From Candidatus Saccharimonadota bacterium (GTDB lineage: Bacteria > Patescibacteriota > Saccharimonadia > Saccharimonadales > UBA4665), in assembly GCA_016699955.1 (NCBI GenBank), contig CP064993.1, positions 210,001 to 242,000 of the forward strand: a stretch of DNA of 32,000 bases. Direction: 5' to 3'. The notes beneath the pieces were generated by a model, which saw only the letters and a program-made list of their open reading frames with translations, made no database searches and had not been told where the DNA came from. Of the stretch, positions 778-25,876 are shown in pieces. Made by a program: the position numbers and the translations under genes. Within the stretch, counting starts at the first letter, position 1, and each line of letters begins with the position of its first letter.

Positions 778-890
778 CGTTTGCTCTCCATGGTTAGGTA
801 TGTTTATAGTACACTGCCAAATAAAAAATCGACAGACATAACTTTCGAGAGCTCGATTCGGTGGTGTTATAATTTAGTCGTTGCAGTTTA

Positions 891-967
891 CGGGGTGTAG
901 CGCAGCTTGGTAGCGCGCGTCGTTCGGGACGACGAGGTCGTGGGTTCAAATCCCGCCACCCCGACCA
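891..967 (+). tRNA. tRNA-Pro (anticodon CGG), CCA encoded
   Basis: A 77-nt cloverleaf folded by hand. Acceptor CGGGGTG/CACCCCG, D arm GCGC-AGCTTGGTA-GCGC, anticodon arm CGTCG-TTCGGGA-CGACG, variable AGGTC, T arm GTGGG-TTCAAAT-CCCGC, discriminator A plus CCA. Confidence 0.9.
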
Positions 968-1011
968 TTTGTTTTGTCGGGTCATTGCTATGCAGTATAA
1001 TCATTTATGAT

Positions 1012-1088
1012 CGGGGAGTGGCGCAGTCCGGTAGCGCACGCGGTTTGGGACCGCGGGGTCGCAGGTTCAAATCCTGTCTCCCCGACCA
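1012..1088 (+). tRNA. tRNA-Pro (anticodon TGG), CCA encoded
   Basis: A 77-nt cloverleaf folded by hand. Acceptor CGGGGAG/CTCCCCG, D arm GCGC-AGTCCGGTA-GCGC, anticodon arm CGCGG-TTTGGGA-CCGCG, variable GGGTC, T arm GCAGG-TTCAAAT-CCTGT, discriminator A plus CCA. It lies 44 nt downstream of the first tRNA-Pro. Confidence 0.9.
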
Positions 1089-1164
1089 GCATATTACCAC
1101 CTCTGTTTTACGGGGGTGTTTTTTATTACGTTCAAGGTGGATTGAGCGGCATCAAAACGCCGAT

Positions 1165-2205: not shown

Positions 2206-2244
2206 TATGTATATTACATACTATAGTATTTATTATATCAATAG

Positions 2245-2261
2245 CAACGACCGGAGACTAT
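2245..2261. repeat. left copy of the 17-bp direct repeat CAACGACCGGAGACTAT flanking the IS
   Basis: Exact 17/17 match to 3315..3331. It directly abuts the left inverted repeat of the IS. Confidence 0.85.
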
Positions 2262-3314: not shown

Positions 3315-3331
3315 CAACGACCGGAGACTAT
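3315..3331. repeat. right copy of the 17-bp direct repeat CAACGACCGGAGACTAT
   Basis: Exact match to 2245..2261. It directly abuts the right inverted repeat. Confidence 0.85.
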
Positions 3332-3359
3332 CCCCACACAGCAAGTACATAGGTTCTGA

Positions 3360-3745
3360 ATGATTAGGCGTATAATTCAGCGCATGGGTCAATGCTTAAA
3401 GGCAAGGTCTGTTCTAGAGTATGTACGCGATAAAAGCATGGGTTCATATGCTCCAACTTCGCCAGACACGATTGCAACTAGCTTAAAAAGCTGACGACGG
3501 ATGATGTACGCGAAGTTTTTGAACTAGCTATTGACTGTGGTTTTTTTAATCTCCCTCAAGAGCAAGGTGAATACCATGTGCTCGGTGCTAAAGGCAAGCG
3601 ATTCCTGAAAAAACACTGGATATTTCCGACTGGGGTGTTTAAACAGTATGCCAATGATAATCAATGGCTAACTGGTCTATTCAGCGGTTCAGTAGGGGCG
3701 ATACTCATTCTAATATTAAGGTGGGTATTTGCTGGAGAACTATGA
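3360..3745 (+). pseudogene. possible frameshifted small ORF (about 130 aa if repaired, C-terminal TM helix)
   Basis: ORF 3360..3494 (MIRRIIQRMGQCLKARSVLEYVRDKSMGSYAPTSPDTIATSLKS*) stops just after an A5 run (3485-3489). The -1 frame is open from 3482 to the TGA at 3743-3745 (LKKLTTDDVREVFELAIDCGFFNLPQEQGEYHVLGAKGKRFLKKHWIFPTGVFKQYANDNQWLTGLFSGSVGAILILILRWVFAGEL) but has no start codon of its own. One extra A would fuse the two frames. Confidence 0.35.
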
Positions 3746-3897
3746 GCAAGAAACTATTCAACCAACTGAAGGCACAGACATCACTTCCTGTACTTTGAGT
3801 TGCCGTTTATCTTTCTATCTCACATCAGTATTCTACTAGCTCCACTTAGGTAAACCGATCTCGGGGAATACTTTTGTGGGTGGGGAGTGTTGGGGTA

Positions 3898-4512
3898 CTA
3901 TTCAACGCTGGCTTTAGGCGCACCCCAGCGCTGAGCGATGACAATTTGCAATGTAAAAGCAGCCACTGAAACACCACACATCAGGGCAAAGCCTAGAGAG
4001 AGCAGCTGTGATTCTATGCTCGAGCTATGGAATCGACTTACAAACACAACAACCAGTGGCACACTCGCCGCTCCAAATTTAACCCAAAACTGGACGCGTT
4101 CGGTAAGCAAATTGCGTTTGCGAGCCGGAATTTTTTCTAGTGGCTTGTGGGCAATAATGGGCACCGTTTTTTCTGTGGCAACATGCACAACCTTGCGGGC
4201 GGATTTTGTTGCGCCCGGAATGTATTTTGCAAACACCACGTAAACGAGCAGTACAAAGACTGCGAGACCGAGCGCTACAAATATGACGGTCATAAGCAGC
4301 GAAGGCTCGAGAGGCACGGCTTCAACGGGCGGTACTTCCACGGGCTTCGGCTCAGACTTTGGAAATATAGTCTCGCCTATTTCTGAGTCAATAATCCTTG
4401 GGAGATACAGTGCGAGCAACCAAAACCACTCCATAAACAGCGTAAAATACCCTACCCCGCCAAGCACTTTTAAGACCGTCCGTTGGAACTTTTTTGGTTT
4501 TGCCATTACCAT
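3898..4512 (-). CDS. hypothetical integral membrane protein (about 4 TM helices)
   Basis: A 204-aa ORF with hydrophobic segments (GGVGYFTLFMEWFWLLALYL, LLMTVIFVALGLAVFVLLVYVVF, FGAASVPLVVVFV, LLSLGFALMCGVSVAAFTLQIVI). Its start overlaps the ymdB stop, which suggests translational coupling. Confidence 0.7.
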   Translation of the reverse strand: MVMAKPKKFQRTVLKVLGGVGYFTLFMEWFWLLALYLPRIIDSEIGETIFPKSEPKPVEVPPVEAVPLEPSLLMTVIFVALGLAVFVLLVYVVFAKYIPGATKSARKVVHVATEKTVPIIAHKPLEKIPARKRNLLTERVQFWVKFGAASVPLVVVFVSRFHSSSIESQLLSLGFALMCGVSVAAFTLQIVIAQRWGAPKASVE

Positions 4513-5300
4513 ACCTCGCGGATATGGCGAACCGACTGAGCACGGCTAGTGGCTTCATTAACCTCGATAAGTAAGGCATTGAACTGCATGCGGCCGGATG
4601 TTTCAAGCTTGTTACGAGTTTGGTAGTTGTCTCGCCAGCGGGGTATGATGCTGCCAAAAGTCACACCTAGGCTCGAATCAAGTGAGCCGCACATGCCAAT
4701 ATCGGTCATGTGTGCTGTCCCTTTTGGTAGCACCTGAGCATCCGCGGTTGGCACATGCCAGTGATCGCCAATGACGACACTCATGCGGCCATCGAGATAA
4801 TGGCCAAACACAATTTTTTCGCTACTAAAATCACCGTGAATGTTTACAACGCTCGCAACGTACGATTCGCGCGTAACGATGTTTAAAATTTCATCGATTT
4901 TTTTGAGTGGATTTTCCGTCTCAATGTCTGCCTGCTTACCGACAATACTGCCGAGAATACTAACAACTAGTACCCCGCCTTTTGACGTCTCGACCAGCTT
5001 GTAGCCAGGCCCCGGGCAGCCAACCATATTGGCTGGGCCAACGACTGGTTCGGCCGGATTTTCTAAAAATGAAGTTAAACTCAACAGATGTGGCGTATGG
5101 TTCCCGCCTGAAAATGCCTGCACACCAGCTGACTGCAAGCGCTGCATGTCTTGTGGGTTCATCCCCTTTCCGTCCGTCACATTTTCGGCCTGTGCGACTA
5201 CAAAATCTAGAGCTTCGGCGGCAATAAGACCTGGCAGTACTTTTTCAACCGCCTGCATACCCTGCTCGGCCATCACATCACCAATGTAAAGCAATTTCAT
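4506..5300 (-). CDS. ymdB: YmdB-family metallophosphoesterase (2',3'-cyclic-nucleotide phosphodiesterase-like)
   Basis: Collinear with my recollection of B. subtilis YmdB: MKLLYIGDV..., AENVTDGKG, GGNHT, VNIHGDFSSEK, GDHWHVPTAD, LPKGTAHMTDIGMCG. Confidence 0.85.
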   Translation of the reverse strand: MKLLYIGDVMAEQGMQAVEKVLPGLIAAEALDFVVAQAENVTDGKGMNPQDMQRLQSAGVQAFSGGNHTPHLLSLTSFLENPAEPVVGPANMVGCPGPGYKLVETSKGGVLVVSILGSIVGKQADIETENPLKKIDEILNIVTRESYVASVVNIHGDFSSEKIVFGHYLDGRMSVVIGDHWHVPTADAQVLPKGTAHMTDIGMCGSLDSSLGVTFGSIIPRWRDNYQTRNKLETSGRMQFNALLIEVNEATSRAQSVRHIREVW

Positions 5301-5530
5301 GGTATCAGTATTACACGTGGACTCCCAAAGTCACAACTCACTTGATAGCCCTCAGGCAATGCGCGAAAACCCCACCCCGAAGTAACGAAATGGTCAGTAT
5401 TGCATACAGTTTGCATAATATACATTATAGTGATTATTACAACTTTTTGTTGTAAAATAACAATATTGCAACCAATTGTCTTGAGGAGTATTAGTAAGAG
5501 TGGGCACAAATTTAATGTTTGGGGGGTAGC

Positions 5531-7600
5531 ATGATTAGTCAAAGAATCCAACTTGTAAAAACACAGATAGAACGTGTTAAAAAAAGGCTATACCGTCAAT
5601 CGATTCTCTTTCGGGCATTGTCCGTCTTAGTAGTTCTGGCATTGGTTATACCAATGAATATGCTAGGGCAAGTCAGGGCTGTATCAGATTTGGCTCCGCC
5701 AACTCTTGTTGCAGCGAGTATAACCTCTGGGGCTACGATGAATACCGAGAATACGACATACCAAGGCTACAATGAGCTACTAGTGAACGTCCAAGCCAAC
5801 GACGATTTATCCGGTAGCCAAGCACCCCTCATCGTATACACCTCGCCTTCCGGAAACCAGACTGCCAGCGGGGGCTCAAACGGCGTAGACGCCTCCGAGT
5901 GGATTTCGATAACAAGCTTCCCACAATACTCAGAAGCAGGCGTCTGGACGCCCACAATGTACCTAGAGGACTACTCAGGCAACAAAGTTACCTATACAGA
6001 TTCGCAGTTACAAGTTATGGGCATAAATATCGACGTAACACTGACCGGGCAAGGTGATACGACAAATCCGGAGCTCGTCAGTATCACGCGAATTGGTCCT
6101 GGGGAATTAGACGTAACCGGCTACATCCCATCTACCAATTTCACCGTGCATATGACAGATAATGTTTCAGGCTTCGGTATCCCAACGCTCACCTATACTT
6201 CTCCCTCAGGTAATCAAGTAATGGCTCCGGCCGTTTGTAATATCATGGACGGGCATACATCAACCGTTGCGGACTATGATTGCGCAGCATACTTCAACCA
6301 ATATTCGGAGACGGGCATATGGACACCTGACCTCTTTATAGCTGACGGAGCTGGCAATATAGTCCACCTGTCAAATAACGAACTACTCGCCCGTGGAATC
6401 GATGCCCGAGTATCTATTGTAGGAACAAGCGATACTACACCACCTACCTTGTCGGATGTTGATGTCACGTTTGCTAATCCTCCGGCAGATAACATACCGT
6501 TTGGGGGTGCTGTGATGACATTGACGGGAACAGTAACCGATAACCTCTCAGGTATCAACGGCACGTCATACATCGGGTACACCTCGCCGACAGGCAAAAC
6601 AGTGTACGGCTCATTGCATATTCCTGAAAATAACGGTGTATTCATTTCCGACGTTTTTTTGCCCTTGTACGCCGAAGGTGGCACTTGGCTGCCGACTATC
6701 TTCGTCCAAGACCCTGCTGGGAATCAGCGTACTTACTCAGTTAGTGACCTAGAGGCTCTTGGGTCGAACATTGCTATAACTGTGTCAAAAAATATCACAG
6801 AGAATGCCACGCCTGGCGGTACGGTAACCTCTGACTATGAAAATGACGGCGCTACATCAGCTAACCCTATCGAGGCTAGCGTCACTACACCAACAGGTGG
6901 ACCGGTATCCATCGTCATCGTACAGTCAGACGACATAAACAGCCCAACGAATAGCTACACGTTCTTTGACCGGCAACTGAATATCACGGCGCCTACCGAA
7001 ACTGTGGAGAGCCCACTGACTCTTAGTTTCACTATCGACTCGTCTGTGGTGCCTTCCGGTGAATCGGCAAGCACCTTACAAATAACCAGAAACGGCACGG
7101 TCGTATCAGAATGTACCGATCAGACGACTGCTACGCCGAACCCCTGTGTCTTCTCGCGTCAGACTCTGGGCGGAGGAGATATATTGGTCCAAATCCATTC
7201 TACGACCGCGAGTGCATGGGCGTCAGGGTTCCCAACACATACAAGCGACTACAATTTTGTTGGGTTCAGCGGCGGAACGAAAGATTACTCGAAAGTAAAT
7301 AAAGCTCAAGCAGGGCAAGTACTTTCGATAGAAATGAAAATCAAAGATGTGCCTCATGGTGTTACTGACATCTTAGCTGCCGGCGAACCGACATCCCAGC
7401 GAGTAAACTGCAGCACGCTTGCAACTATTGGCTCCCCGGAAGCTACACTATCGCCTAAGAATAGCGGCTTAGAAAGAATAGGTAAGAACAAGTTTGAGTA
7501 TGATTGGCGAACCGTTAAAAGTTGGGAAAACACGTGCCGCGTATTCAACGTTCAGCTCATAGATGGCAGCAGCCAGAAAGCACTGTTCAAGTTCCAATAA
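5531..7600 (+). CDS. secreted/anchored surface protein with three tandem ~120-aa Ig-like repeats and a Cys-containing C-terminal beta-domain
   Basis: Start placed at the ATG at 5531, with a GGGGGG run (5516-5526) upstream; the track start at 5519 is TTG. N-terminal hydrophobic anchor or signal (ALSVLVVLALVIPMNMLGQVRA). The repeats span 5687-6793 and share D-x-x-x-P-x-L ... D-(N/D)-(L/V)-SG ... YTSP(S/T)G ... (Q)YSE(A/T)G-W-(T/L)P ... D-x-(S/A)GN. The C-terminus (F-x-G-F ... N-K-A-Q-A-G ... C ... Y-D-W-R-T ... W-x-x-x-C-R ... L-x-D-G ... F-K-F) resembles a domain I recall from other secreted proteins. Confidence 0.8.
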   Translation: MISQRIQLVKTQIERVKKRLYRQSILFRALSVLVVLALVIPMNMLGQVRAVSDLAPPTLVAASITSGATMNTENTTYQGYNELLVNVQANDDLSGSQAPLIVYTSPSGNQTASGGSNGVDASEWISITSFPQYSEAGVWTPTMYLEDYSGNKVTYTDSQLQVMGINIDVTLTGQGDTTNPELVSITRIGPGELDVTGYIPSTNFTVHMTDNVSGFGIPTLTYTSPSGNQVMAPAVCNIMDGHTSTVADYDCAAYFNQYSETGIWTPDLFIADGAGNIVHLSNNELLARGIDARVSIVGTSDTTPPTLSDVDVTFANPPADNIPFGGAVMTLTGTVTDNLSGINGTSYIGYTSPTGKTVYGSLHIPENNGVFISDVFLPLYAEGGTWLPTIFVQDPAGNQRTYSVSDLEALGSNIAITVSKNITENATPGGTVTSDYENDGATSANPIEASVTTPTGGPVSIVIVQSDDINSPTNSYTFFDRQLNITAPTETVESPLTLSFTIDSSVVPSGESASTLQITRNGTVVSECTDQTTATPNPCVFSRQTLGGGDILVQIHSTTASAWASGFPTHTSDYNFVGFSGGTKDYSKVNKAQAGQVLSIEMKIKDVPHGVTDILAAGEPTSQRVNCSTLATIGSPEATLSPKNSGLERIGKNKFEYDWRTVKSWENTCRVFNVQLIDGSSQKALFKFQ

Positions 7601-7713: not shown

Positions 7714-8256
7714 CTAACGAAGAATACGAAGGCTATCGAAGAAATCTCGCCATTCCTCATTGGTAAAGTTGACGGATGGTTTTGCAAATATAAGTGTGCC
7801 TGCTTTGTTTGCTACTGCAGATTGTCCCCCGTTTAATTCTTTGGGGCGAGTGAGAGCTACTGTCCCGAATCCTATCTGGAGCTCATCATATTCGTTGAGG
7901 GTGTTGAGCATCCTGCTGTACTGGGTTGGTACATCTGCGAATGCCCCTGGTGTAGGCTGTTCATTCAATACCACCTGTCGTCCAGTACTCGCTTGTAAGG
8001 CGTGGAGTGTCAGAACCCCGCTTTCTTTGTCGTAGCTGGTCCGATCTTTTTGCAGCTGCCACACTGTGTCTAACTTTGTTGTATCCCCTGGGTAGAAAAT
8101 AATGAAGTCAGCCTGATCGAGTATCTGTTGGCTTATAACCGTCCGACTTTCAGCCATCTGTTTAAGCACAAAGGCACCAGCAGCAACCACGATGACACTC
8201 AAGAGGAGAACTGTAAAGGTTACGACCAGGCGACGTCTCGTTTTTTTATAAGCCAT
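7714..8256 (-). CDS. small N-terminally anchored extracytoplasmic protein (partner of the upstream large exoprotein gene)
   Basis: A 180-aa ORF with basic residues followed by a TM helix (KKTRRRLVVTFTVLLLSVIVVAAGAFVL). Its ATG lies 2 nt after the stop of 8259..9947. The architecture matches 14859..15419. Confidence 0.7.
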   Translation of the reverse strand: MAYKKTRRRLVVTFTVLLLSVIVVAAGAFVLKQMAESRTVISQQILDQADFIIFYPGDTTKLDTVWQLQKDRTSYDKESGVLTLHALQASTGRQVVLNEQPTPGAFADVPTQYSRMLNTLNEYDELQIGFGTVALTRPKELNGGQSAVANKAGTLIFAKPSVNFTNEEWRDFFDSLRILR

Positions 8257-8258
8257 GC

Positions 8259-9947
8259 TTAGCGTTTGTCTATGAAAGTTACTATTGAACCTGCGCAGTT
8301 ATCGGCATTGGCCGCACAAGCAGTAGCACCACTCCATACTGTTCGAGCATTGCCAAGCACATTATAGATGGTTCCGGTACCTTCTGTCGGTTTGGTCGCC
8401 ACCGTGCGAGCATAGCCTGCTGTTGCCGAAGTGAATAGGTACGAGTTTACAGTATTTGAACCAGTGATTGCTTTGACTGCAGCCGGTCCTCCGGTTGCCA
8501 TGATTGCGTTGATTGTAGTGGTAGACGCTGCCCCGGTTGTCGCGACTATAACGCCTCCGATATTATTAAAATTTGCTGTAGTTGTGCTCTGAACAACACC
8601 CTTGGTAGCAACGAAGGTGACAATAGTACCGATGCCGATGGCGCTATTAAGCGCCACAGTAGCCTTTTCGGTCGTAGTGTATGTCCTAGTATCGTAAATC
8701 TGCGTAATGGTGTTGTTGGCACCGGTAAAACCAATATCTGCCAGACACAATATAGGGGACGTGGCAGACGGGAAAGATACGGTGGCGAGGTTCGCTGTTT
8801 CAGTTCCCGATGCAGAAAGAGCTGGCTGATTATTTGCACCTGTAAGACATAGGTGCTGGAACCTGGCTGCAACGGCGTTTGTCGTGGTAGCCGTACCTGC
8901 AGTAACTATGACTTTCCTACCGCCAGAATACGCGGTGCATCCTGTCCAAGAAACAGTTGTCGTGTTCGCCCCTACCGCAACCTTGCATGGACCATTAATT
9001 GCTGCTGTTACACCATAAATATCCCCGGGGTTTGCTCCACTGTCTGGCAGGACACCGAATAGTTGTAGTCCCAAGCCGGCAGTTGACACCATGTCTTCCC
9101 AGGTACCATTGACACAGCCTCGGATGACATTTGTACTGGTGTTATAGTACAGGCCGCCCTGGTTCGTAGTAGTGCCGCATGTAGCGGTGTCCGCGAATGT
9201 GCTGAATGAATCGAGCTGGAGCAATACTTGCGTGGTGTCAGTGGCGTTCGAGCCTATTACTACCTCACTACCGCTTGTGTCGGCACTAAGTATGGCAACA
9301 CTACCAGTAGATTGGATTTGGAAAGCCGTGGCGGAGTCTGCTTGGTTCTTCATAAGTACCGCTCCGTTATTTCCCACCGAGAATACCGTGGCACCATTTC
9401 GTTGCAAGTCCATCACACTCGCAGTTGCGCCTGTCTTATTGACACCAATGGAAGCGCTGGTGGTAGACGTGTCGCTCTGTACCCCCTGCGCAAGCTGTAC
9501 GAATTGGGCGCTTGTGAGCCCATCAACTTGGTCGGCATTGAAAGCATACGGCGAGGCGGTGAACTGTATACGCGGCGTCATTTCCGCATCTGCCCCGACT
9601 TTTACCCCCAAGTACAGCGAGTTTGTGTTGAAGTCGACGCTACCAGGCAGGCTAGTCACGCTCCCAAGAGAAACCTGAAATATTCCGTCTGCGACTGACA
9701 CGGAAGGCTGGGTCTCTGTCCACACTGCCGAACCGCCCGAGCTAACGGTGTAAATACTGAAAACAATTGAATATGCCCCATTAGTGACATTTGTCCCATC
9801 TGGGTTGGTCAGCTTACCTTGGAAATTTATCTGCTGGTTGATGGCAGCGTCGGTGTGTGGGGAGCTTAGGAAAAAGGCCATGCCGAATAGCAGGCAAACC
9901 GCCAGAAAAACCGCTCCTTTTACCGCTCTTTTTTGTATACCAAACAT
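8259..9947 (-). CDS. large secreted Thr/Gly/Ala-rich surface protein, tail-fibre-like/adhesin-like
   Basis: Signal peptide (AVFLAVCLLFGMAFFLSSPHTDA). The N-terminal module is INFQGKLTNPDGTNVTNGAYSIVFSIYTVSSGGSAVWTETQPSVSVADGIFQVSLG...LYLGVKVGADAEMTPRIQFTASPYAFNADQVDGL, a pattern I recall from tail-fibre-like surface proteins. Paired cysteines occur throughout. Confidence 0.75.
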   Translation of the reverse strand: MFGIQKRAVKGAVFLAVCLLFGMAFFLSSPHTDAAINQQINFQGKLTNPDGTNVTNGAYSIVFSIYTVSSGGSAVWTETQPSVSVADGIFQVSLGSVTSLPGSVDFNTNSLYLGVKVGADAEMTPRIQFTASPYAFNADQVDGLTSAQFVQLAQGVQSDTSTTSASIGVNKTGATASVMDLQRNGATVFSVGNNGAVLMKNQADSATAFQIQSTGSVAILSADTSGSEVVIGSNATDTTQVLLQLDSFSTFADTATCGTTTNQGGLYYNTSTNVIRGCVNGTWEDMVSTAGLGLQLFGVLPDSGANPGDIYGVTAAINGPCKVAVGANTTTVSWTGCTAYSGGRKVIVTAGTATTTNAVAARFQHLCLTGANNQPALSASGTETANLATVSFPSATSPILCLADIGFTGANNTITQIYDTRTYTTTEKATVALNSAIGIGTIVTFVATKGVVQSTTTANFNNIGGVIVATTGAASTTTINAIMATGGPAAVKAITGSNTVNSYLFTSATAGYARTVATKPTEGTGTIYNVLGNARTVWSGATACAANADNCAGSIVTFIDKR

Positions 9948-9967
9948 AAGTACAATATCCCCGTTAC

Positions 9968-9996
9968 AGTATACTCCTTACCCCTAGAGTGCTCAA
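9968..9996 (-). promoter_or_regulatory. sigma70-like promoter for 8259..9947 (TTGAGC-17-TATACT on the minus strand)
   Basis: Plus-strand GCTCAA at 9991-9996 (-35) and AGTATA at 9968-9973 (-10) with a 17-nt spacer. It lies about 20 nt upstream of the ATG at 9947. Confidence 0.5.
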
Positions 9997-10028
9997 GCTT
10001 TGCGACTTAGCTTTTTTCTCTGTAGTGT

Positions 10029-11345
10029 TTATGCTTTGCGTGGTGTTTTCCGAGCGGTGGTTCTTTTTACGGTTTTCTTCGTGCTCGCTCCCTTACGCGG
10101 AGCTGCTGTTTTCTTCTGAGAAGTTGGCTTGGTACTCGCCTTGGACGATGTCTTTTTGACCGGTTTCAAATCCTTGGTAACTTTTACTGGAATGCTGCGT
10201 GGAGCATGTGCAGTTCCTTTTTCGGCTATGTGCTTAACAATCATTTTAGCTGCGCTTTTTCTTGCTCTCGCCTTTGTGGCTTCATGGTGTGCGTAGAGTG
10301 CGGCGCCGCCCAATTTACGGGGGCGTGCAGTGCCATCAGATGTTCGCTTGAAAAAACGAAAATAAACACGCTTTCCGCGTTTGAACGGCCATCGTAAAGC
10401 CTTGGCTAGGCGCACTACCATTTTGCGATATGGTATATGTTTTAGGTGCGCCCGTTGCCACCACACGAGCAGTACGATAACCCCAAGGAAAAGTACGTCG
10501 ACAAACGGTACATACCAGAATGTTTGCTGCTTAATAAGCTCAACGTCACTACCGTCTATCCTGTACATCGTCTGCATGCGGATATGCTTGGGAAACCAGG
10601 TATGTAACACTGCTTGCACTGGGGCAGAATAGGTTGCTTTTTGCCTAGGGAACAGCAAACGCGATTCAGTGTTGACCACGGCGCGAGCGAAAAGCTGTTG
10701 GCCGTTCGTGCTGTAAAAACTTACGCTTGCTCTTGGGACAACATGGGCATTTCCGCTATTTCGAAACGTCAAATCGACGCTACGGGGCAATCCGAAAGGG
10801 CTATGCTTTGCCTGTAGTTTCTGCAGCTCAAGATTCGTACGTAGACCTTCAGCATTGACCACGAAGACACTCACTGCGACAGCTGGCCGAAAGGCAAGTG
10901 CAGCACGGGCAGCCCCCTGTTCCGTAATTACTAGATTGGCATAGTGCCCGCCAGGTGCAAGCGGCTGCGTGCCGTTCACAACAAGTTGTAATTGTACCTG
11001 TCCATGAGCCGGAATCGTCAGGTCTGTATTGGAAATCGATAACGCCTTAGCGAAGCTGCCAGTCAGCGGACTGGTCGGCACAAGTCGTGCGCTGGACTCG
11101 TCAATGGATCGAAGCTCGGCTGCAAGCCGAACAGTGGAAGCATAATTGTTAGTGATAGTCACACTTGCTTCGGTACCGGGCTTCTGGCGATTGACCGTCA
11201 GACTTATCTGCGCTGGCGAGACGGTTAAGCCTGTTTTGACGGAACCAGCCTGAGCACCTGCCCTCGATGGGCACAGCAGAAAGATTGCTCCGGCCACAAA
11301 GAGCAAACTGTACGCTATTACAGAAAGATTACGGCTTCGTATCAT
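10029..11345 (-). CDS. exported two-domain beta-sandwich-like protein with a C-terminal TM anchor and a long basic cytoplasmic tail
   Basis: Start placed at the internal ATG at 11345 (MIRSRNLSVIAYSLLFVAGAIFLLCPSRAGAQA signal). The mature N-terminus reads GLTVSPAQISLTVNRQKPGTEASVTITNN. A second domain (VDLTFRNSGNAHVVPRASVSFY...) is followed by the TM helix FVDVLFLGVIVLLVWW and a 142-aa Lys/Arg/Thr/Ala-rich tail. The architecture matches the upstream gene. Confidence 0.75.
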   Translation of the reverse strand: MIRSRNLSVIAYSLLFVAGAIFLLCPSRAGAQAGSVKTGLTVSPAQISLTVNRQKPGTEASVTITNNYASTVRLAAELRSIDESSARLVPTSPLTGSFAKALSISNTDLTIPAHGQVQLQLVVNGTQPLAPGGHYANLVITEQGAARAALAFRPAVAVSVFVVNAEGLRTNLELQKLQAKHSPFGLPRSVDLTFRNSGNAHVVPRASVSFYSTNGQQLFARAVVNTESRLLFPRQKATYSAPVQAVLHTWFPKHIRMQTMYRIDGSDVELIKQQTFWYVPFVDVLFLGVIVLLVWWQRAHLKHIPYRKMVVRLAKALRWPFKRGKRVYFRFFKRTSDGTARPRKLGGAALYAHHEATKARARKSAAKMIVKHIAEKGTAHAPRSIPVKVTKDLKPVKKTSSKASTKPTSQKKTAAPRKGASTKKTVKRTTARKTPRKA

Positions 11346-12408
11346 CTTGATGTGAGGCTTTTTTGCTACGACGAACTTTGCGCGACGTCGCACCCACGGC
11401 TCGACCGAACGAACGAAGTATAACGATAACCCCGATGATGAGCACGATGATAATAAGCAACAGGCATAGTAGCATCCGCCATGGTATGACCCAGAAGCTT
11501 AGTTCGGCCATGACAGGCGTATCGCGCTGACCGTCGTTGTAGACAGCCACAACCTTGGCGACATACCGACCCATACGGAGCTTGCTAATACCCCCCTTCC
11601 AGACGAGCTTTTGCTTTTTTGTACCATCCGGTTCTGTAACGGTTTCGTAGTGTGGGAATCCATCGTCCCACTCAGCCACAAATGTCCGCGTCGTCCCTGG
11701 GATGATGAAACCACCGTCTTTGTTTAGCGCCAACGTGGCGAGTGGAACGGTATCGCTGGAGTGCCTCTGGATAAAGACGGTACCGGTCGGTTGCACATCG
11801 GTGTTGCCAGTATTTTTCAGCTTGATAGAAACGCTAGCAGGAAGATACTCATAGGTACGCTTGCTGAGTGATACACTTTTGAGGCTGAATTGCCGGACTG
11901 CGCCAGGCCGATCGACATTAACGAGCGTGAAAACTGCGACCGAACCTGCAATAGCCGACGTACCTTTGGCAGCCTTGGGTGGGTTCTGTTGTGCGATAGT
12001 TACTGCAAAATTATAGGTAAACGCGGCGTCAGACGTTGTGTTGATATGAATACGCTGGGTGAATATCTGACCGGCCTGAAGCGTAAATGTCGGCTCTTCG
12101 AATCGTACAAGCTGCTGTATTGCCTGTGACGGATTATCACCAAGGCTGACTTGCTCGGTTGTTTCATTGACCGTAAATGGCCTCAGACCCATTTTGAGCG
12201 CCTGTGTCGTCGTATTGGTATTACGAATTTGCAGTTCAAGAACAGTATTAGTACCAGGTCGTACTGTCGTCACCAGAGGCGAAGGGCTCACTTGCAGCGA
12301 AAAACCTTGTTCCGCAGCATGAGCCGTCGCAAAATGCATTGGTACGAAAGCGCAGGCTACGACGAAGCCGACAGCGACATGACGCAAAACTTTAGATACC
12401 CTCTTCAT
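11329..12408 (-). CDS. exported two-domain beta-sandwich-like protein with a C-terminal TM anchor (DUF916/DUF3324-like architecture, by memory)
   Basis: Signal peptide (VAVGFVVACAFVPMHFATAHA). The mature N-terminus reads AEQGFSLQVSPSPLVTTVRPGTNTVLELQIRNTN. A second domain (VSIKLKNTGNTDVQPTGTVFIQ...IIPGTTRTF...MGRYVAKVVAVY...FWVIPW) is followed by the TM helix LLCLLLIIIVLIIGVIVIL and a short basic tail. Confidence 0.75.
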   Translation of the reverse strand: MKRVSKVLRHVAVGFVVACAFVPMHFATAHAAEQGFSLQVSPSPLVTTVRPGTNTVLELQIRNTNTTTQALKMGLRPFTVNETTEQVSLGDNPSQAIQQLVRFEEPTFTLQAGQIFTQRIHINTTSDAAFTYNFAVTIAQQNPPKAAKGTSAIAGSVAVFTLVNVDRPGAVRQFSLKSVSLSKRTYEYLPASVSIKLKNTGNTDVQPTGTVFIQRHSSDTVPLATLALNKDGGFIIPGTTRTFVAEWDDGFPHYETVTEPDGTKKQKLVWKGGISKLRMGRYVAKVVAVYNDGQRDTPVMAELSFWVIPWRMLLCLLLIIIVLIIGVIVILRSFGRAVGATSRKVRRSKKASHQDDTKP

Positions 12409-12451
12409 TACCCTCTATTGTACACGAGAAATAGTCCTCGCTGCTAGCCAG

Positions 12452-12486
12452 AAAAAAACGGCCGCGAGGTCTACCCTCACGGCCGT
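12452..12486 (-). terminator. strong rho-independent terminator after the 12510..13538 subunit gene
   Basis: On the minus strand, ACGGCCGTGAGG-GTAGA-CCTCGCGGCCGT forms a 12-bp stem with one G-U pair, followed by T7 (plus-strand A-run 12452-12458). It begins 24 nt after the stop codon. Confidence 0.85.
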
Positions 12487-12509
12487 AAACAGACAAAATC
12501 TAGAGCTCT

Positions 12510-13538
12510 TTAGAACAAACCTGCACCAACTACCGTGATGGTGTCAGTGTAATCTGTTGCTGGAAGCGTCAAGCTGCTGATAGCTGCGTTGTTCGTCAGA
12601 GTCAGCACGGCAGTTTGAGCCGTTCCGGTTGACGAAGCAAGCGTGCGGAGAGTCGTATCGAGACCACCACCCTTACCAGCGCTACCACCGACAAATGGTG
12701 CGGCGACAGTAACTGTGCCGGTTCCACCGACCTGTGATTGAGTCACGCCCGTGTTGTAGCCTTCAGTGCCAGCTGACAAGGTACTGTTAGAACCAGGTGT
12801 CGTAGAAGCAATAGTCGCTGAAGCTGTCGTCGAGTTCAAGCCCGTGCTGGCATCTTTTGCCCATACATACCAACCGTTCTTTGCATTGGTATTGACTGTA
12901 GCGGTACGTGGTGTCGGACTGACAGACACGCTACCGGTTGAAAGCGCACCAAGGTTATCACTGTTGCCACTGAGTGCAAAAGTGAATGAAGGAGCGACGG
13001 TAGCACTCACCACAATCTGATCATCTGCGATGGCTGCAGTAGCAAAGGAAATGGCTGTGTCGACATTGGTCTCAACCGTGCCCGAGTAGGTGCCAGCTAC
13101 ACTCGTCTCAAGCGCAGTAGTACTGTTCGTCCAGTTGAAGCAATACAATGTACCGGACACCAGCGCACCACTGGACCAAGTGACTGCTTTGCCGACAACG
13201 CCAGAGGCACTTGCACCAATAGACGGCCAAGCCGATGCTGTGGCTGGCCACGCAAGGTTGGCCGTGCTGGTAGCCCAGTCACCGGTGGTACCACTGACTG
13301 TATATGCCGTTGGAAATGTGACTGTGACAGATGTCTGACCGGCATTTGCGGCCTTGGCACAGACGGTGCCGCTTGTGAAAGTCGAAGCTTTCATGCGGTC
13401 GAAGCGTACGAGCACCTGGCTGAGGCTGGCTGCCGAGGCAGTGCTACCGAGTGCAAGCATCACAGAAGTGACAACGGCAGCTATATATAACCCTGCCAGT
13501 GTAAATGCTGCCAGCCGAACTGATTTATTCTTTTGCAT
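12510..13538 (-). CDS. secreted Thr/Ala/Gly/Ser-rich subunit-like protein, paralogous in its C-terminal domain to 13657..14700
   Basis: Start placed at the ATG at 13538 (MQKNKSVRLAAFTLAGLYIAAVVTSVMLALGSTASA signal; AAGGAAG Shine-Dalgarno upstream). The C-terminal domain reads TVAPSFTFALSGN...TNAKNGWYVWAKDASTGL...GY...PF...ATDYTDTITVVGAGLF-COOH. The gene has its own promoter and a strong terminator. Confidence 0.8.
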   Translation of the reverse strand: MQKNKSVRLAAFTLAGLYIAAVVTSVMLALGSTASAASLSQVLVRFDRMKASTFTSGTVCAKAANAGQTSVTVTFPTAYTVSGTTGDWATSTANLAWPATASAWPSIGASASGVVGKAVTWSSGALVSGTLYCFNWTNSTTALETSVAGTYSGTVETNVDTAISFATAAIADDQIVVSATVAPSFTFALSGNSDNLGALSTGSVSVSPTPRTATVNTNAKNGWYVWAKDASTGLNSTTASATIASTTPGSNSTLSAGTEGYNTGVTQSQVGGTGTVTVAAPFVGGSAGKGGGLDTTLRTLASSTGTAQTAVLTLTNNAAISSLTLPATDYTDTITVVGAGLF

Positions 13539-13579
13539 ACTAATTTCTTCCTTTATTTTTACTTGTAACATATAGAAGA

Positions 13580-13608
13580 ATTATGCACGATACACGGCAT
13601 AAGCGCAA
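13580..13608 (-). promoter_or_regulatory. sigma70-like promoter for 12510..13538 (TTGCGC-17-CATAAT on the minus strand)
   Basis: Plus-strand GCGCAA at 13603-13608 (-35) and ATTATG at 13580-13585 (-10) with a 17-nt spacer. This gives a leader of about 35 nt to the ATG at 13538. Confidence 0.5.
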
Positions 13609-13656
13609 GCACTTTGTGCGCACTGTCACAATAGTCTTAAGAGCTTATCTGAAGCG

Positions 13657-14700
13657 CTAGAAACTCATCGCAGCGACCAGCGTTATGCTGTCGCCGTAAT
13701 CTGGAGCACTCGGTGTTAGGGCTGCCGCCTTTGCCATGAGCCGTAGCGTACCGCTTCCCCCTGTGATAGGGCCTGCTGTTGCCAGCAACGGCTGCAACGA
13801 TGTTGTGACCGCACCGACATTATTCGATGTTCCGTTGAATGGCGATTGAGCCGTGAAAGGACCTCCGCCAGATTGGCTTGTAGACGTTATCTGGCCTCCG
13901 TAGCCGCTGCTCGCAACAGACAAATCCGCAGTCGCAGATGCGAGCGTGGTGTTAGCAAGCGTACTATAAAGCCCTGTATGTGTATCACGTAGGTACACCG
14001 TCCCGCCGTTATTGGCATTGGTAGTCATGCTGATGATTCCGTCTGCGCTACCATTGGTCACGGCTCCAGCGGCCAGGCTTGTAAATCCGACCGTAAATGG
14101 AGGCGTGCCTGTAAGCGTCGTGGCGAGGCTGAAGGTCACACTCGGTGCAACTGTTGACGCTGTTGCGACTGGGCCAAAAGCACTGCCAGTGGACTTGCCC
14201 TCTAGTGCCTTCACTTTGACTTTATAGGTCGTCGAGGGGGTAAGCCCAACAACCGAAAAGCCACTTGCTCCACCCCAAGCTGTGTACGTCTGATAATTAA
14301 CGATGGCTTGACTAGCCCCGATGCTGTTGTCGGTTTGTACATAAAGTGTCGTCACGAAATTATCACTGCTTACCGCAATAAGATACTTCGTATCACTCGG
14401 ATTACCGCCGGTGGCAAGCACAAGCTTAAGTCTGTCATAGTAGCTAGAAGGATTTGTAAATGTCGGTGCGGGTGGCACATTGGCGTTCACGACGCCTCGC
14501 CCGTCACTCTGCGCGCCGTACGTCGTCGAAGACTGAGCCGTTGCAGATGGTGCTCCTGTGCCAGCCTGGAGGCCATAATTGGTACTGGTCGACGTGCCAC
14601 CACCCGTACCAACATTGTACGTTTTGAGAGTGTAGTTCGTACTGCTCGGCGCCGCCGCAAATAACAGTACTGGCAGTGTAAGTCCCCAAAGCTTATGCAT
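13657..14700 (-). CDS. secreted protein: Gly/Thr-rich N-terminus, fibronectin-III-like domain, then a C-terminal domain paralogous to 12510..13538
   Basis: Short signal peptide (MHKLWGLTLPVLLFAAA). FN3-like stretch: PPAPTFTNPSSYYDRLKLVLATGGNPSDTKYLIAVSS...GLTPSTTYKVKVKALEG. C-terminal domain: TVAPSVTFSLA...TNANNGGTVYLRDTHTGL...GYG...PF...APDYGDSITLVAAMSF-COOH. Confidence 0.8.
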   Translation of the reverse strand: MHKLWGLTLPVLLFAAAPSSTNYTLKTYNVGTGGGTSTSTNYGLQAGTGAPSATAQSSTTYGAQSDGRGVVNANVPPAPTFTNPSSYYDRLKLVLATGGNPSDTKYLIAVSSDNFVTTLYVQTDNSIGASQAIVNYQTYTAWGGASGFSVVGLTPSTTYKVKVKALEGKSTGSAFGPVATASTVAPSVTFSLATTLTGTPPFTVGFTSLAAGAVTNGSADGIISMTTNANNGGTVYLRDTHTGLYSTLANTTLASATADLSVASSGYGGQITSTSQSGGGPFTAQSPFNGTSNNVGAVTTSLQPLLATAGPITGGSGTLRLMAKAAALTPSAPDYGDSITLVAAMSF

Positions 14701-14740
14701 ACATCCTAGTATAGCGCAGATGCGAAATGCGTGAAGCCCC

Positions 14741-14822
14741 CAGGCGTTAGGCGAGCGAGAGCGATGTTTTAAGAGGCGCCCCGCTTTAGAACTCGGTGCT
14801 TACGGCGAGCTCAGGTCTGGTT
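14741..14822. repeat. copy A of a ~80-nt conserved intergenic element (copy B at 27914..27990)
   Basis: Three blocks are shared with copy B in the same orientation: CAGGCGTTAGGCGAGCGA (18/18), AGAGGC[G/A]CCCCGCTT (16/17) and GCTTACG[G/C]CGAG (13/14). The spacers between blocks differ in length. Confidence 0.7.
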
Positions 14823-14858
14823 ATGCCTATTGATCTGTGTGCTGAATTTAGTGACGTT

Positions 14859-15419
14859 CTATTTCCACTGCCAGTTGGTCACGACGGCTTCCAGAGTACT
14901 CTCTAGGTCGGCTTTGTGTACCGATGAGCCACTCACGACCACTGCTGCGTAATTTGAGCCTTGAGCCCAGTACACAGCCGTTTCATATGTATCTGCTTTC
15001 GTAAAAACTAGCGCACTCGCTGGTGCGAATGGACGGGTCGAGACCGCATATACGTCCGACTGTAATCTACGCAGTTTTATCGCCGAGAGCTCTTCCAACT
15101 GCATTGTCCCGAGCGTCCCTACCGTCACCCCCAGTTGATCATCCCGTCTGAGCAAAGTAGACCCCAGCAGATATTGGCCCGTGGTCATACCCTGCGCTAC
15201 CTCGTTGCTACTGACAACTCTCAGGCTACTCGGTGCTCGAGTAATGAAATGTTCGGTTTTCCAAGTGAAAAGCTTCTCCTGACTGCCAAGAACCGCCCTG
15301 CTTTCCTCTTGATCAGTTGTGACCACCGTGGTTACCGCGGATTGATTCCACCAGATAAAACCCCCGGTGCCAATACCAAGCACAATGGCTGCCGCAATCC
15401 CAATGAGCCATTTTTTCAT
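14859..15419 (-). CDS. small N-terminally anchored extracytoplasmic protein (partner of the upstream PKD-motif protein gene)
   Basis: A 186-aa ORF with an N-terminal TM helix (WLIGIAAAIVLGIGTGGFIWW). An ATGA start/stop overlap joins it to 15416..16396. Size and architecture match 7714..8256. Confidence 0.7.
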   Translation of the reverse strand: MKKWLIGIAAAIVLGIGTGGFIWWNQSAVTTVVTTDQEESRAVLGSQEKLFTWKTEHFITRAPSSLRVVSSNEVAQGMTTGQYLLGSTLLRRDDQLGVTVGTLGTMQLEELSAIKLRRLQSDVYAVSTRPFAPASALVFTKADTYETAVYWAQGSNYAAVVVSGSSVHKADLESTLEAVVTNWQWK

Positions 15420-16396
15420 TTGCGTTTTGTGCCTTTTTTAACCGATTTGATTGTGGACTGCTCCAGTCCTGTCTCGTAGCGATGTTTCGCACGTTGATAC
15501 CCAAACCTGTACGTTACAATGAAGATAAAGTTAAAAAATATAAAGTAGGCTGCATAATACCAGCCCGCCCAATCCGTATTTGATTGAGGAAACGTGCGAA
15601 CACTACCACCTTTTGATTGATCCGGTGCATTACCCGTGTTGCTGACAACGGCGTAAATATATTCTGTGTAGCCACCCCTCGCATCTCTGACACGCAGATG
15701 GACCGGATAGGCCTTGGCTGTTCGATATGTATGTGTAAACTCATACATGCCCGCTAGGTTGATACTGTGTGACTCTGTCGTGCCATCCCCCCAGTTGAGA
15801 GCTAGCACGTAGGGGCTCTCGCCTCCGCCAATCACAACACGTATCGTCGCCTCAGTATTCGAGGAGGTAACGAAGCTGAAAGGATCCTGGGTAGTCACTG
15901 TTAGGCCACTTTCGCTCCCAGCGTTTGATGCCCCTGTTTGCTGCTCATTTGAACTCGGTTGATTGACAGAGGGAGGGAGCGGCTCCACCACAACGGCTTG
16001 GGTGAACGTAACGACCCTAGCAGCACTGTCTGGCCCAAACACACCATTGACGTTTGCCGTTCGCGCGATGAGAGTATTCTGGCCAGGACTTAGTGCAATC
16101 TGCAGACTGTATAATCCGGATGTGCAGCTTGTTGAACCTAGTATTTGTCCGTCACGCCAGACAGAGACTACTCCTGGTGGTGCGATGGATTCACATGTAC
16201 CACTTACTGTTTGCAGGGCATTTTGAAACGTCATACCGCCAGTGGGTGATGCGATAGTCGCTGCCTGTGAAGGTGCCGGGTAGGGCACCACCGCGTTGAC
16301 GTTATAATCTTCAGCAAAAACCCAGCGTGTAGAAACCGCGCCAATCATCACGACGAGCAATAGGACAAGAGCAAGATAGTGTCGTCTGTATCTCAT
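15416..16396 (-). CDS. exported protein with an Ig-like region, a PKD-like motif and a C-terminal TM anchor
   Basis: Signal peptide (LALVLLLVVMIGAVSTRWVFA). PKD-like signature: NWGDGTTESH...HTYRTAKAYPVHLRVRDARGGY. C-terminal TM helix (WAGWYYAAYFIFFNFIFIVTY) followed by a basic tail. Confidence 0.75.
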   Translation of the reverse strand: MRYRRHYLALVLLLVVMIGAVSTRWVFAEDYNVNAVVPYPAPSQAATIASPTGGMTFQNALQTVSGTCESIAPPGVVSVWRDGQILGSTSCTSGLYSLQIALSPGQNTLIARTANVNGVFGPDSAARVVTFTQAVVVEPLPPSVNQPSSNEQQTGASNAGSESGLTVTTQDPFSFVTSSNTEATIRVVIGGGESPYVLALNWGDGTTESHSINLAGMYEFTHTYRTAKAYPVHLRVRDARGGYTEYIYAVVSNTGNAPDQSKGGSVRTFPQSNTDWAGWYYAAYFIFFNFIFIVTYRFGYQRAKHRYETGLEQSTIKSVKKGTKRK

Positions 16397-16531: not shown

Positions 16532-18046
16532 CTACTTCGCAAATTCGATAGCGCGGGTTTCGCGAATGACATTTACCTTGATAGTACCGGGGTAGTTCAT
16601 ACTACTTTCTATCTTTGTGGCAATGTCGCGGGCAAGGCGAATGGCCGTGAGGTCATCGATCTGCTGTGGTTTTACAAAAACACGGACTTCGCGACCAGCA
16701 CTAATAGCGTAAGACTTCTCAATACCATTAAAGCCGTTTGCTATGTTTTCAAGCTCTTTCATACGCTCAGCGAAGTTTTCGGATGAGATGTTTCGAGCGC
16801 CAGGGCGGGCGGCAGAAACAGCGTCACAGACACGCACAATCACAGCTTCTAGGCTGGTTGCTTCCATGTCGTCGTGGTGCTGCTCGGCAGCGAGCGCGAC
16901 CGCTTCTGGGGCACCATATTTGCGCAACATTTCACCGCTAATATGGTGGTGCTTGCCTTCCATTTTATGAGTCAGCGCTTTGCCTAGGTCGTGGAATAAC
17001 GTTGCGTATTTGGTTATTGCCACGTTTGCGCCGAGTTCTTCGGCAAGCATACCAGCCATGTGAGCCATTTCAGTTGAGTGTTTTAAGACATTTTGCCCAT
17101 AGCTAGTGCGGAATCTTAATTCACCTAACATATGCAGCAGTTCTTTAGGAACGCCAAGTACACCAACTTCACGAGCAGCATCTTCGCCCGCACGTAGCAC
17201 ATCTTTTTCGACATTCTTTTGAGCTTTTTCGACGACTTCTTCTATGCGACCTGGGTGAACGCGGCCATCCTTAAGCAAAAGTTCGAGCGCTTGTCGGGCA
17301 ACTTCACGACGAACTGGGTCAAAACAGCTCAGCACAATATAACCTGGTGTATCGTCGACCATAATATCGACGCCGGTTGCCTTTTGGAGCGCTTGAATAT
17401 TGCGCCCTTCCTTGCCGATAATCCGGCCTTTCATTTCCTCGTCTTCTAGTTTCACGCTCGTAAGGGTTCGCTCTGCTGTCACTTCACTGGCCATACGCTC
17501 CATGGCGGTAACTATAATCAGCCCAGCGGCATCTTCAGCATTATCTCGAGCTTCATTTTGGAGTTTTGCAACAAGTCCGAGCAAGTCATTCTTTATGTCT
17601 TTCTCAGTCATTTGCATGAGCTTTTCAGCCGCATCTGCCTTGGTAAGCTTGGCGATTTTCTCAAGCTTTTCTTGCTGCTTTAGGCGGATGTCCCGAATTT
17701 CATTTTTAAGCGCTTCTACTTCATCTTCACCCGTACGAAGTTTCTCATTCCGCTTATCGAGCTCGTCGAGCTTTTTATCGAGAGTGGTTTCACGTTGTAC
17801 AAGTCGGAGTTCAAGTTCTTTCAGTTCATTTCGACGAGTTTGTTCTTCTTTACGCGCTTCGTCGGCTACCTTACGAGCGTCTTCCCGGGCTTCATCGATA
17901 AGCTTATCCGCTTCTTTTTTTGCTTTTGACAGTTCCCTTGAGGCCTTGTCATCAGCCGCAGCTGATTTTTTTTTGCTGACATATGTGCTGCCTGAATAGC
18001 CAAGGCCAAGCCCTGCTACCACGAGCAAAATAGTAATTGGATCCAT
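16532..18046 (-). CDS. rny: ribonuclease Y
   Basis: N-terminal TM helix, then a long Lys/Glu coiled-coil region. KH motif: IGKEGRNIQALQKATGVDIMVDDTP. HD domain: TLFHDLGK...HHDD. 504 aa. Confidence 0.95.
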   Translation of the reverse strand: MDPITILLVVAGLGLGYSGSTYVSKKKSAAADDKASRELSKAKKEADKLIDEAREDARKVADEARKEEQTRRNELKELELRLVQRETTLDKKLDELDKRNEKLRTGEDEVEALKNEIRDIRLKQQEKLEKIAKLTKADAAEKLMQMTEKDIKNDLLGLVAKLQNEARDNAEDAAGLIIVTAMERMASEVTAERTLTSVKLEDEEMKGRIIGKEGRNIQALQKATGVDIMVDDTPGYIVLSCFDPVRREVARQALELLLKDGRVHPGRIEEVVEKAQKNVEKDVLRAGEDAAREVGVLGVPKELLHMLGELRFRTSYGQNVLKHSTEMAHMAGMLAEELGANVAITKYATLFHDLGKALTHKMEGKHHHISGEMLRKYGAPEAVALAAEQHHDDMEATSLEAVIVRVCDAVSAARPGARNISSENFAERMKELENIANGFNGIEKSYAISAGREVRVFVKPQQIDDLTAIRLARDIATKIESSMNYPGTIKVNVIRETRAIEFAK

Positions 18047-23901: not shown

Positions 23902-23942
23902 AGAATGGTTTGCGGTTGTGGTTTTTGGTATACTTATACGCA

Positions 23943-25766: not shown

Positions 25767-25876
25767 TAAACAAGGAAGGGGCCGTGACGAGCAAGAACTT
25801 GCTTATCTTATAAACTAGGTACGTCATAGTAGAATCTATGGTATCGGGTCGCAAGTTGCGCTACTATTTAAAGCAT

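Follow-up and report, generated by a model that had tools for sequence, protein, structure and literature searches.

Attachment to other microbes is the way of life of all cultivated bacteria of the Candidate Phyla Radiation (CPR; Patescibacteria), and the means by which these cells locate and keep hold of their hosts are largely not understood. The locus described here raises the question of whether eight contiguous minus-strand open reading frames (ORFs), running from position 16396 down to 7714 of a 32,000-nucleotide stretch of a Candidatus Saccharimonadota genome (contig CP064993.1, positions 210,001 to 242,000; hereafter the window), together encode a surface structure and, if so, of what kind. 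A sequence-only reading of this DNA had proposed an undescribed surface-fibre module, neither a type IV nor a sortase pilus, that follows a chaperone-plus-subunit logic. Its functional guess was essentially right, as co-conserved gene order, a chaperone fold and homology to Pam pili attest, while the word 'undescribed' has to be dropped: this kind of system was already described in 2026 as the Pam pilus of CPR bacteria (Troman et al., bioRxiv 2026, 10.64898/2026.03.03.709456) and is represented by curated models in NCBIfam release 20, one of which, that of PamR, is matched by the first gene of the cluster. In our view the cluster most probably encodes a Pam-type pilus of a divergent subtype, one assembled with the help of chaperones and without an usher. 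This reading is based on gene content, topology, the chaperone fold, the homologies to Pam components and co-conservation across genomes.

Eight exported or anchored proteins

The eight ORFs are labelled G1 to G8 in the order of transcription. Together with two putative regulatory sites, they are as follows (lengths in amino acids, aa).

15416-16396, minus strand: G1, PamR-like protein, 326 aa; signal peptide, PKD/FnIII-like domains and C-terminal anchor
14859-15419, minus strand: G2, small N-anchored protein, 186 aa
14708-14735, minus strand: promoter-like site 5' of G3, from a consensus scan (9/12 matches)
13657-14700, minus strand: G3, candidate major pilin, 347 aa
12510-13571, minus strand: G4, candidate second pilin, 353 aa
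12458-12486, minus strand: terminator-like hairpin in the G4-G5 gap; 12-bp stem with 9 G-C pairs and a T7 tail
11329-12408, minus strand: G5, predicted membrane-anchored PapD/WxLIP-like chaperone 1, 359 aa
10029-11393, minus strand: G6, predicted membrane-anchored chaperone 2, paralogue of G5, 454 aa
8259-9947, minus strand: G7, fibre adhesin candidate, 562 aa
7714-8256, minus strand: G8, small N-anchored protein, 180 aa

The ORFs, their coordinates and the exported or anchored nature of all eight products agree with the sequence-only reading. Every product carries an N-terminal hydrophobic segment; that of G3 is short, signal-like and under the hydropathy cutoff used, and it is kept across the family alignment. 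Transmembrane (TM) helices lie at residues 4-22 of G2 and 10-28 of G8, and towards the C-termini of G5 (313-331) and G6 (292-310). G1 and G2 share the 4-nucleotide (nt) ATGA overlap that had been noted from the sequence, G7 and G8 are spaced by 2 nt, and the gap between G2 and G3 measures 158 nt. The start of G6 is probably Met17 (11345), in which case it overlaps G5 by 17 nt instead of 65 nt. A motif search of the eight proteins found no LPXTG motif, class III signal or dual WxL motif, and Pfam and NCBIfam scans of the same proteins found no usher, secretin, sortase or ATPase domain, as the sequence-only reading had maintained; the lack of a class III signal, ATPase, LPXTG motif and sortase in the eight proteins distinguishes the cluster from type IV and sortase pili. 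No further pilin paralogues were found elsewhere in the window.

Relationship to the Pam pilus

Cryo-electron microscopy (cryo-EM) of filaments of Ca. Mycosynbacter amalyticus revealed two pilins, PamA and PamB (PDB 25PZ and 25QA), which polymerise by donor-strand exchange of their inter-domain linker (Troman et al., 2026, and supplement). PamC and PamD are PapD/FimC-like chaperones with a C-terminal TM helix, and the operon further encodes PamE, the tip pilin PamT and PamR. The last of these resembles RbmA, carries a strand at its N-terminus and a TM helix at its C-terminus, and was suggested to terminate and anchor the fibre; genes for a tail-fibre-like protein and for ATP synthase are conserved in the neighbourhood (Troman et al., 2026). 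We set the M. amalyticus Pam proteins against G1-G8 by their published description and by the curated NCBIfam models NF058578 (PamR), NF058579 (PamT) and NF058581 (Pam pilin C domain). As reference pam loci we used the surroundings of two bona fide PamR genes (L001 and L003), whose neighbours strongly match NF058579 and NF058581.

The most direct link is G1, which matches the PamR model (E 1.7e-35, 122 bits, model positions 37-288 of 297), is 33% identical over its full length to a PamR protein that passes the equivalog cutoff of that model (300 bits), and aligns with the PamR family in hhalign at 100%. The model was matched by all 23 G1-family members scanned, nine distant ones of which exceed 300 bits. 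A signal peptide at the N-terminus of G1 is followed by a conserved beta-strand-like motif, YxVxAxVP, and the C-terminus consists of an aromatic-rich hydrophobic stretch and a basic tail; this stretch lies under the hydropathy cutoff, and the anchor is read from the sequence. The earlier description of G1 as a PKD-motif protein with a C-terminal anchor thus holds in part: the WGDG motif is invariant within the G1 family, while the PKD signal itself is sub-threshold for Pfam (20 bits). By analogy with PamR, G1 is proposed to act as fibre terminator and membrane anchor.

The second link is provided by the chaperones. The AlphaFold2 (AF2) monomer model of G5 (predicted local distance difference test, pLDDT, 90.8) has two beta-sandwich domains and a long C-terminal helix. 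When it was compared with the PDB using Foldseek, the top match was the WxLIP protein of Enterococcus faecium bound to a WxL protein (9i25_C, E 2.4e-10); 9i1y was also matched, as were CsuC (5d6h, 5.4e-9), CfaA, FimC, DraB and EcpB. G5 is 25% identical over 304 aa (E 2e-10) to the chaperone-position gene of a canonical pam locus, and G6 matches the canonical chaperone-position gene with an E-value of 8e-4. In hhalign, G5 and G6 align with each other at 99.9% and with the chaperone-position proteins at 100%. On the strength of the model, G5 and G6 can be regarded as PapD-like, two-domain, membrane-tethered chaperones; the tandem pair of two-domain beta-sandwich proteins with C-terminal TM helices recognised in the sequence-only reading is borne out by the G5 model, the paralogy of the two proteins and their TM helices. 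Among the G6-type proteins, whose lengths run from 230 to about 500 aa, the tail that follows the TM helix differs in length between relatives; in G6 (residues ~311-454, window 10029-10500) it comprises about 140 aa, is cytoplasmic and has a very high content of K, R, T, S and A.

The kinship with WxLIP is also visible in profile searches of relatives. G5 and G6 themselves have no significant Pfam match, while the canonical chaperone-position gene adjoining PamR matches Pfam WxLIP_PGBD (36.8 bits against a 27.3-bit threshold). The same domain was matched in 12 of 55 members of the G6/canonical chaperone family, where a single PapD_N and a single WxLIP_HBD match were also found, and in 3 of 42 members of the G5 family. 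The WxL/Csc clusters of Lactobacillales and Enterococcus (PMC10599100; 9i25, 9i1y) indeed resemble the locus in several respects: both have an anchored protein with two Ig-like domains and a C-terminal TM helix, WxLIP (DUF916 PF06030, DUF3324 PF11797 and TM helix) being the best structural match of G5, both encode this protein beside secreted beta-rich partners, and both operate in a monoderm-type envelope. They differ in that G3 and G4 have no WxL domain or motif, no LPXTG protein is encoded here, G5 and G6 are sub-threshold in Pfam, and filaments are not known for WxL clusters; a beta-hairpin of WxLIP is predicted to enter the partner protein, and fibre formation is not known (PMC10599100). 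The comparison with Csc/WxL clusters drawn in the sequence-only reading was apt for the chaperones, by their WxLIP fold and the Pfam matches in their relatives, and not for the subunits, since no WxL match appeared in G3, G4 or 79 relatives. The main text of the Troman et al. preprint makes no mention of WxL or DUF916, so the link between WxLIP and Pam chaperones may be a modest new point. With chaperone-usher pili the locus shares the PapD-like chaperone fold and, presumably, donor-strand complementation and exchange; unlike those systems, the present one lacks both the usher and the outer membrane in which an usher sits, its chaperones are tethered to the membrane, and G3 and G4 are two-domain proteins without a Fimbrial or SCPU signature.

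The candidate pilins are the most divergent part of the comparison. Of the earlier claim that G3 and G4 are two paralogous secreted subunits, the C-terminal half stands: their paralogy is confined to the C-terminal ~170 residues (34% identity, E 4e-11; hhalign 99.5%), and their N-terminal domains differ. G3 consists of an unfolded extension (~19-72), an fn3-like domain (~75-180), a linker strand (~183-192) and a C-terminal beta domain (~185-347). The linker strand, TVAPSVTFSL, is strongly conserved (family form TVAPSxTFxL). In the AF2 monomer of G3 (pLDDT 79) both beta domains exceed 85 and residues 1-72 fall under 50, and a fold search with this model returned fn3 matches. The conservation of residues 1-72 (0.6-0.78) contrasts with their lack of a fold in the monomer model, and the extension 19-72 contains three S-T-N-Y-x-L-like repeats (STNYTLK, STNYGLQ and STTYGAQ) that are kept across the family; this extension may have a role as a donor strand, in glycosylation or as a docking peptide. 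G4 has two domains, one cysteine pair, a conserved linker (SATVAPSFTFAL) and a C-terminal end in ...DYTDTITVVGAGLF.

Profile-profile comparison was made against canonical Pam pilins from the reference loci. The C-terminal domain of G3 aligns with the canonical Pam pilin C-domain in hhalign at 94.1% (E 1.3e-7), and G4 aligns with the canonical pilins end to end over 291 columns at 96.8% (E 2.2e-10), in register at the linker (DQIVVSATVAPSFTFAL in one and NQIVLNATVPPNLTFC in the other), at a TNAxxG motif and at the extreme C-terminus. The G4 family is on this evidence a sister family of the curated Pam pilins, because just 2 of the 79 members scanned touch NF058581, weakly and at best with 1.6e-5. 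Among the G4-family representatives screened by size and cysteine count there was no M. amalyticus accession. The possibility that the subunits are WxL, SCPU or fimbrial proteins was rejected, as neither G3, G4 nor the 79 relatives gave such a Pfam match. A G4-like module also occurs at the extreme C-terminus of four large proteins of other genomes (P0345, 1641 aa; P0349, 1113 aa; P0361, 936 aa; P0356, 784 aa), which, by analogy with the 'large WxL' proteins or with two-domain tip adhesins, could be adhesins incorporated into the pilus.

G7 has an N-terminal anchor or signal, a conserved domain (~31-150) and a hypervariable C-terminal part of about 400 aa with 9 cysteines; conservation across loci is 0.66-0.78 at the N-terminus versus 0.18-0.35 at the C-terminus. 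Its residues 32-100 match the NCBIfam model Bdello_MAT_N (NF053851) weakly (E 2e-6, 27.7 bits, cutoff 60), and no PDB or PHROG match was found for it. In its N-terminal domain and its layout of conserved base and hypervariable distal part, G7 is similar to the MAT fibres of Bdellovibrio (PMC10769870; NF053851), likewise a bacterium that lives on other bacteria, with the differences that G7 stays below the 60-bit cutoff and sits inside a pilus operon; this comparison was made by sequence only. G7 was considered as a tip pilin and rejected, as it contains no pilin module. It is likely a host-specificity determinant encoded together with the pilus.

The two small anchored proteins are not related to each other (hhalign 1.5%). 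G2 has no informative family match in Pfam, NCBIfam or PHROG (a match to Pfam Gp41_Mu was weak), and no counterpart of it is named in the Pam parts list of the Troman et al. preprint. Of 65 related loci, 41 contain a gene matched by its family hidden Markov model (HMM), and the position of this gene varies; in some loci with altered copy number the G2 homologue follows the chaperones and does not precede G3. G2 is a conserved, putative accessory. G8, by comparison, has no family match in Pfam, NCBIfam or PHROG, is weakly conserved and was detected downstream of G3 in just 4 of 43 loci, and its membership in the pilus system is uncertain.

Taken together, the locus shares with the Pam pilus a CPR host, Sec-exported parts, a member of the PamR family anchored at its C-terminus, a pair of paralogous PapD-like chaperones each bearing a TM helix near the C-terminus, two-domain pilins whose inter-domain linker is conserved and whose C-terminal domain is homologous, a tail-fibre-like gene alongside, and the lack of an usher, secretin and ATPase. 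Several observations weigh against a Pam-type pilus, and they also define how far this locus differs from the published one. Three of the features captured by the curated models are not recovered here, namely the pilin domain, the PamR equivalog score and the PamT tip pilin. G3 and G4 gave no match to NF058581 at E<=1 (cutoff 55 bits), an HMM built from the canonical pilins misses both, and their link to Pam is one of profile-profile alignment, against a canonical set of 8 sequences. The C-terminal domain of G3 is unmatched to any solved pilin, fn3 matches dominating the fold search; its N-terminal domain is fn3-like instead of the described nine-strand sandwich and is preceded by the long, disordered and conserved extension, and G3 contains no cysteines, against the two pairs of PamA and the three of PamB given in the preprint. 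At 122 bits G1 falls far under the PamR equivalog cutoff, and in more than half of the related loci a PamR-type gene does not lie beside the module. No match to NF058579 was found among the nine window proteins scanned, and neither a PamA- nor a PamE-type subunit is present, while G2 is an additional conserved anchored protein. Gene order is not the same as in the pam operon, and none of the ten large flanking ORFs scanned is an ATP synthase gene.

Conservation and genomic setting

A scan of GTDB species-level representatives with the G3 alignment yielded 69 loci, the PamR alignment being too divergent to serve as an anchor. Synteny was counted with family HMMs in the 43 loci with at least 7 kilobases (kb) downstream of G3 and the 53 with at least 3 kb upstream of it, and for G2 in all 65 loci. 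G4 was found in 41/43 loci, two chaperone genes in 41/43 and G7 downstream of the chaperones in 36/43; the strict order pilin(s)-chaperones-fibre was kept in 35/43, so that the co-occurrence and order proposed as a check of the sequence-only reading are indeed seen in related genomes. A PamR-type gene lies upstream of G3 in 22/53 loci. The clustering of G1-G8 is not chance, because gene order is conserved in dozens of species-level genomes. The 69 loci span Saccharibacteria, Moranbacteria, Andersenbacteria, Amesbacteria and others, and nearly all carry CPR labels. The records labelled Bdellovibrionales, Gammaproteobacteria or Bacillota (L035-L041, L045, L046, L049, L058, L062, L064, L066 and L068) look like taxonomic mislabels or binning errors of CPR bins. 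Copy number differs by lineage, some loci having two G4-type pilins and others two G5-type chaperones plus a G6-type one (loci with altered copy number: L033, L036, L051, L056, L059 and L061; L035, L038, L041, L042, L046, L052, L062 and L071).

One contig (L043) carries on one and the same strand both a canonical module (41-5335), complete with pilin, pilin, chaperone, pilin and PamR, and a G3-type module (9965-12763), 4.6 kb apart. Because both coexist there, the canonical pam and the G3-type modules are paralogous subtypes and not orthologous replacements of each other. The record is labelled Limnocylindrales, probably through a binning error.

In the window and in its closest relatives (L006 and L008) the cluster sits between rny (RNase Y) and ymdB, at 16532-18046 and 4506-5300 of the window, respectively. 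The L010 and L016 loci instead have rny next to ymdB, with the cluster placed on the downstream side of ymdB; because of this difference in position, the module seems to have moved as a unit. The flanks of the cluster are of a housekeeping nature (rny, ymdB and recA). An insertion sequence (IS)-type transposase with an rve integrase core and helix-turn-helix domains is encoded at 2316-3308 on the plus strand, about 4.4 kb downstream of the cluster. Convergent to the cluster, at 5519-7600 on the plus strand, is the gene of a 693-aa exported protein with repeated Ig-like segments, DUF7743 and a C-terminal PxKF domain (NF038114, 1.2e-18); it was considered as a part of the system and rejected, as it has no homologue in any related locus.

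Type IV pilus genes are encoded 7.5 kb upstream, separate from the cluster: a PilB-like ATPase (T2SSE and MshEN) at 23910-25766, a PilC-like platform protein (T2SSF) at 25838-27088 and, at 30271-31818, a 515-aa protein with an N-terminal methylation motif and a CarboxypepD_reg domain. Beside them stand two unannotated ORFs (28054-29664 and 29661-30332). Two different filament systems are thus found within 25 kb of genome.

The hairpin between G4 and G5 has a predicted folding energy of -25.5 kcal/mol (RNAfold) and ends in its T7 tail. Among related loci, 19/50 have a hairpin plus T-run no more than 160 nt beyond the last pilin gene, a raw count with no matched control. The window hairpin is probably an attenuator that would set a high pilin-to-chaperone ratio; given such a strong hairpin after G4, pilin transcripts should exceed chaperone transcripts. 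Promoter-like sites in the region are no more numerous than in shuffled sequences, and the one at 14708-14735 is weak.

Assembly model, alternatives and meaning

The cluster can be accommodated in an assembly model whose polymerisation step, donated strand, subunit order and role in host attachment are taken by analogy from the M. amalyticus structures, and in which we infer the roles of G1, G2, G7 and G8. All components would be exported by Sec. G5 and G6, tethered in the cytoplasmic membrane by their C-terminal helix, would cap the incomplete Ig-like C-terminal domain of newly exported G3 and G4, which would then polymerise by donor-strand exchange as the conserved linker strand fills the groove of the neighbouring subunit; the unfolded N-terminal extension of G3 may also act as a donor. 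G3 is the likely major subunit, because it is the best-conserved gene, has its own promoter-like site and is followed, after G4, by the strong hairpin. G1 would insert its N-terminal strand into the last subunit, so that growth stops and the fibre becomes anchored in the membrane. G7, with its conserved base and hypervariable tip, would be the likely determinant of host specificity, and G2 an accessory. By the same analogy, the pilus probably serves host attachment.

How distinct is this locus from the published operon? One alternative is simple orthology with the PamR-PamB-PamC segment of the M. amalyticus operon, which would make it no separate subtype. The numbering of the QHN/WP accessions implies the contiguous order PamC-PamB-PamR-PamD-PamE-PamA-PamT (QHN43268-43274), which when reversed reads R-B-C as in the window; the size of PamB, 38.7 kDa, is close to that of G3 and G4, and PamB has homologues in 344 mostly Saccharimonadia genomes as well as a conserved tail-fibre-like neighbour (10.64898/2026.03.03.709456). 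We nevertheless consider simple orthology unlikely in view of the near-complete lack of NF058581 matches in G3, G4 and the G4 relatives, the low PamR score of G1, and cysteine counts of 0 in G3 and 2 in G4 compared with three pairs in PamB. The M. amalyticus genome, moreover, was not returned by the G3-pattern scan of GTDB representatives, and on the L043 contig the canonical and G3-type modules stand together.

Another alternative retains the chaperones and dispenses with the filament: as in WxL/Csc clusters, the anchored WxLIP-like proteins would display G3 and G4 on the cell surface as adhesins, monomeric or oligomeric, that do not polymerise into a pilus. That the best structural match of G5 is a WxLIP complexed with a WxL protein, that WxLIP_PGBD matches recur in the chaperone families, that hairpin insertion is predicted for WxLIP without known fibres and that the locus lacks a tip pilin are all compatible with such a complex. 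Yet G3 and G4 are homologous to Pam pilins, for which cryo-EM shows polymerisation, the linker that is donated in PamA and PamB is conserved in both, a PamR-type terminator gene is present and there is no WxL domain or motif, so that we judge a non-filamentous complex to be rather improbable. Derivation from a prophage or tail-fibre module, or the chance adjacency of unrelated exported proteins, is effectively refuted. The tail-fibre-like character of G7, the weak Gp41_Mu match of G2 and the IS integrase at 2316-3308 might have hinted at a phage origin, but the nine proteins searched gave no relevant PHROG match, no phage structural or replication genes are present, and dozens of CPR species conserve both the gene order and the gene content, with housekeeping flanks. 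We thus favour a divergent subtype of the Pam pilus.

A more far-reaching reading is possible, to which we give somewhat less than even weight: that G3-to-G7 constitutes a second and more widespread class of CPR donor-strand pilus, with its own fn3 pilin and extension as possible donor, with G2 and with a MAT-like host-range fibre, and that its chaperones are also true homologues of the WxLIP proteins of Firmicutes. If that homology is true, Pam and WxL/Csc systems would be two branches of one ancient, usher-less and chaperone-assisted pathway of single-membrane bacteria, and strand-complementation chemistry would be predicted in WxL clusters too. The WxLIP link connects the CPR system with the adhesion clusters of lactobacilli and enterococci, which are poorly understood, and suggests that the two share a mechanism.

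The locus type is widespread. Homologues of G3 form more than 667 clusters at 90% identity, many of them more than 55% identical to G3, those of G5 number 965, and the G4 family has 496 representatives at 50% identity, in Saccharibacteria and several other CPR lineages. As the curated Pam pilin model misses G3 and G4, routine annotation would leave such pilins 'hypothetical'. It was only in 2026 that Pam pili were linked to host contact, in a single species, and the coupling of pilus genes to a fibre with a hypervariable tip provides a concrete candidate for the determination of host range in these attached bacteria.

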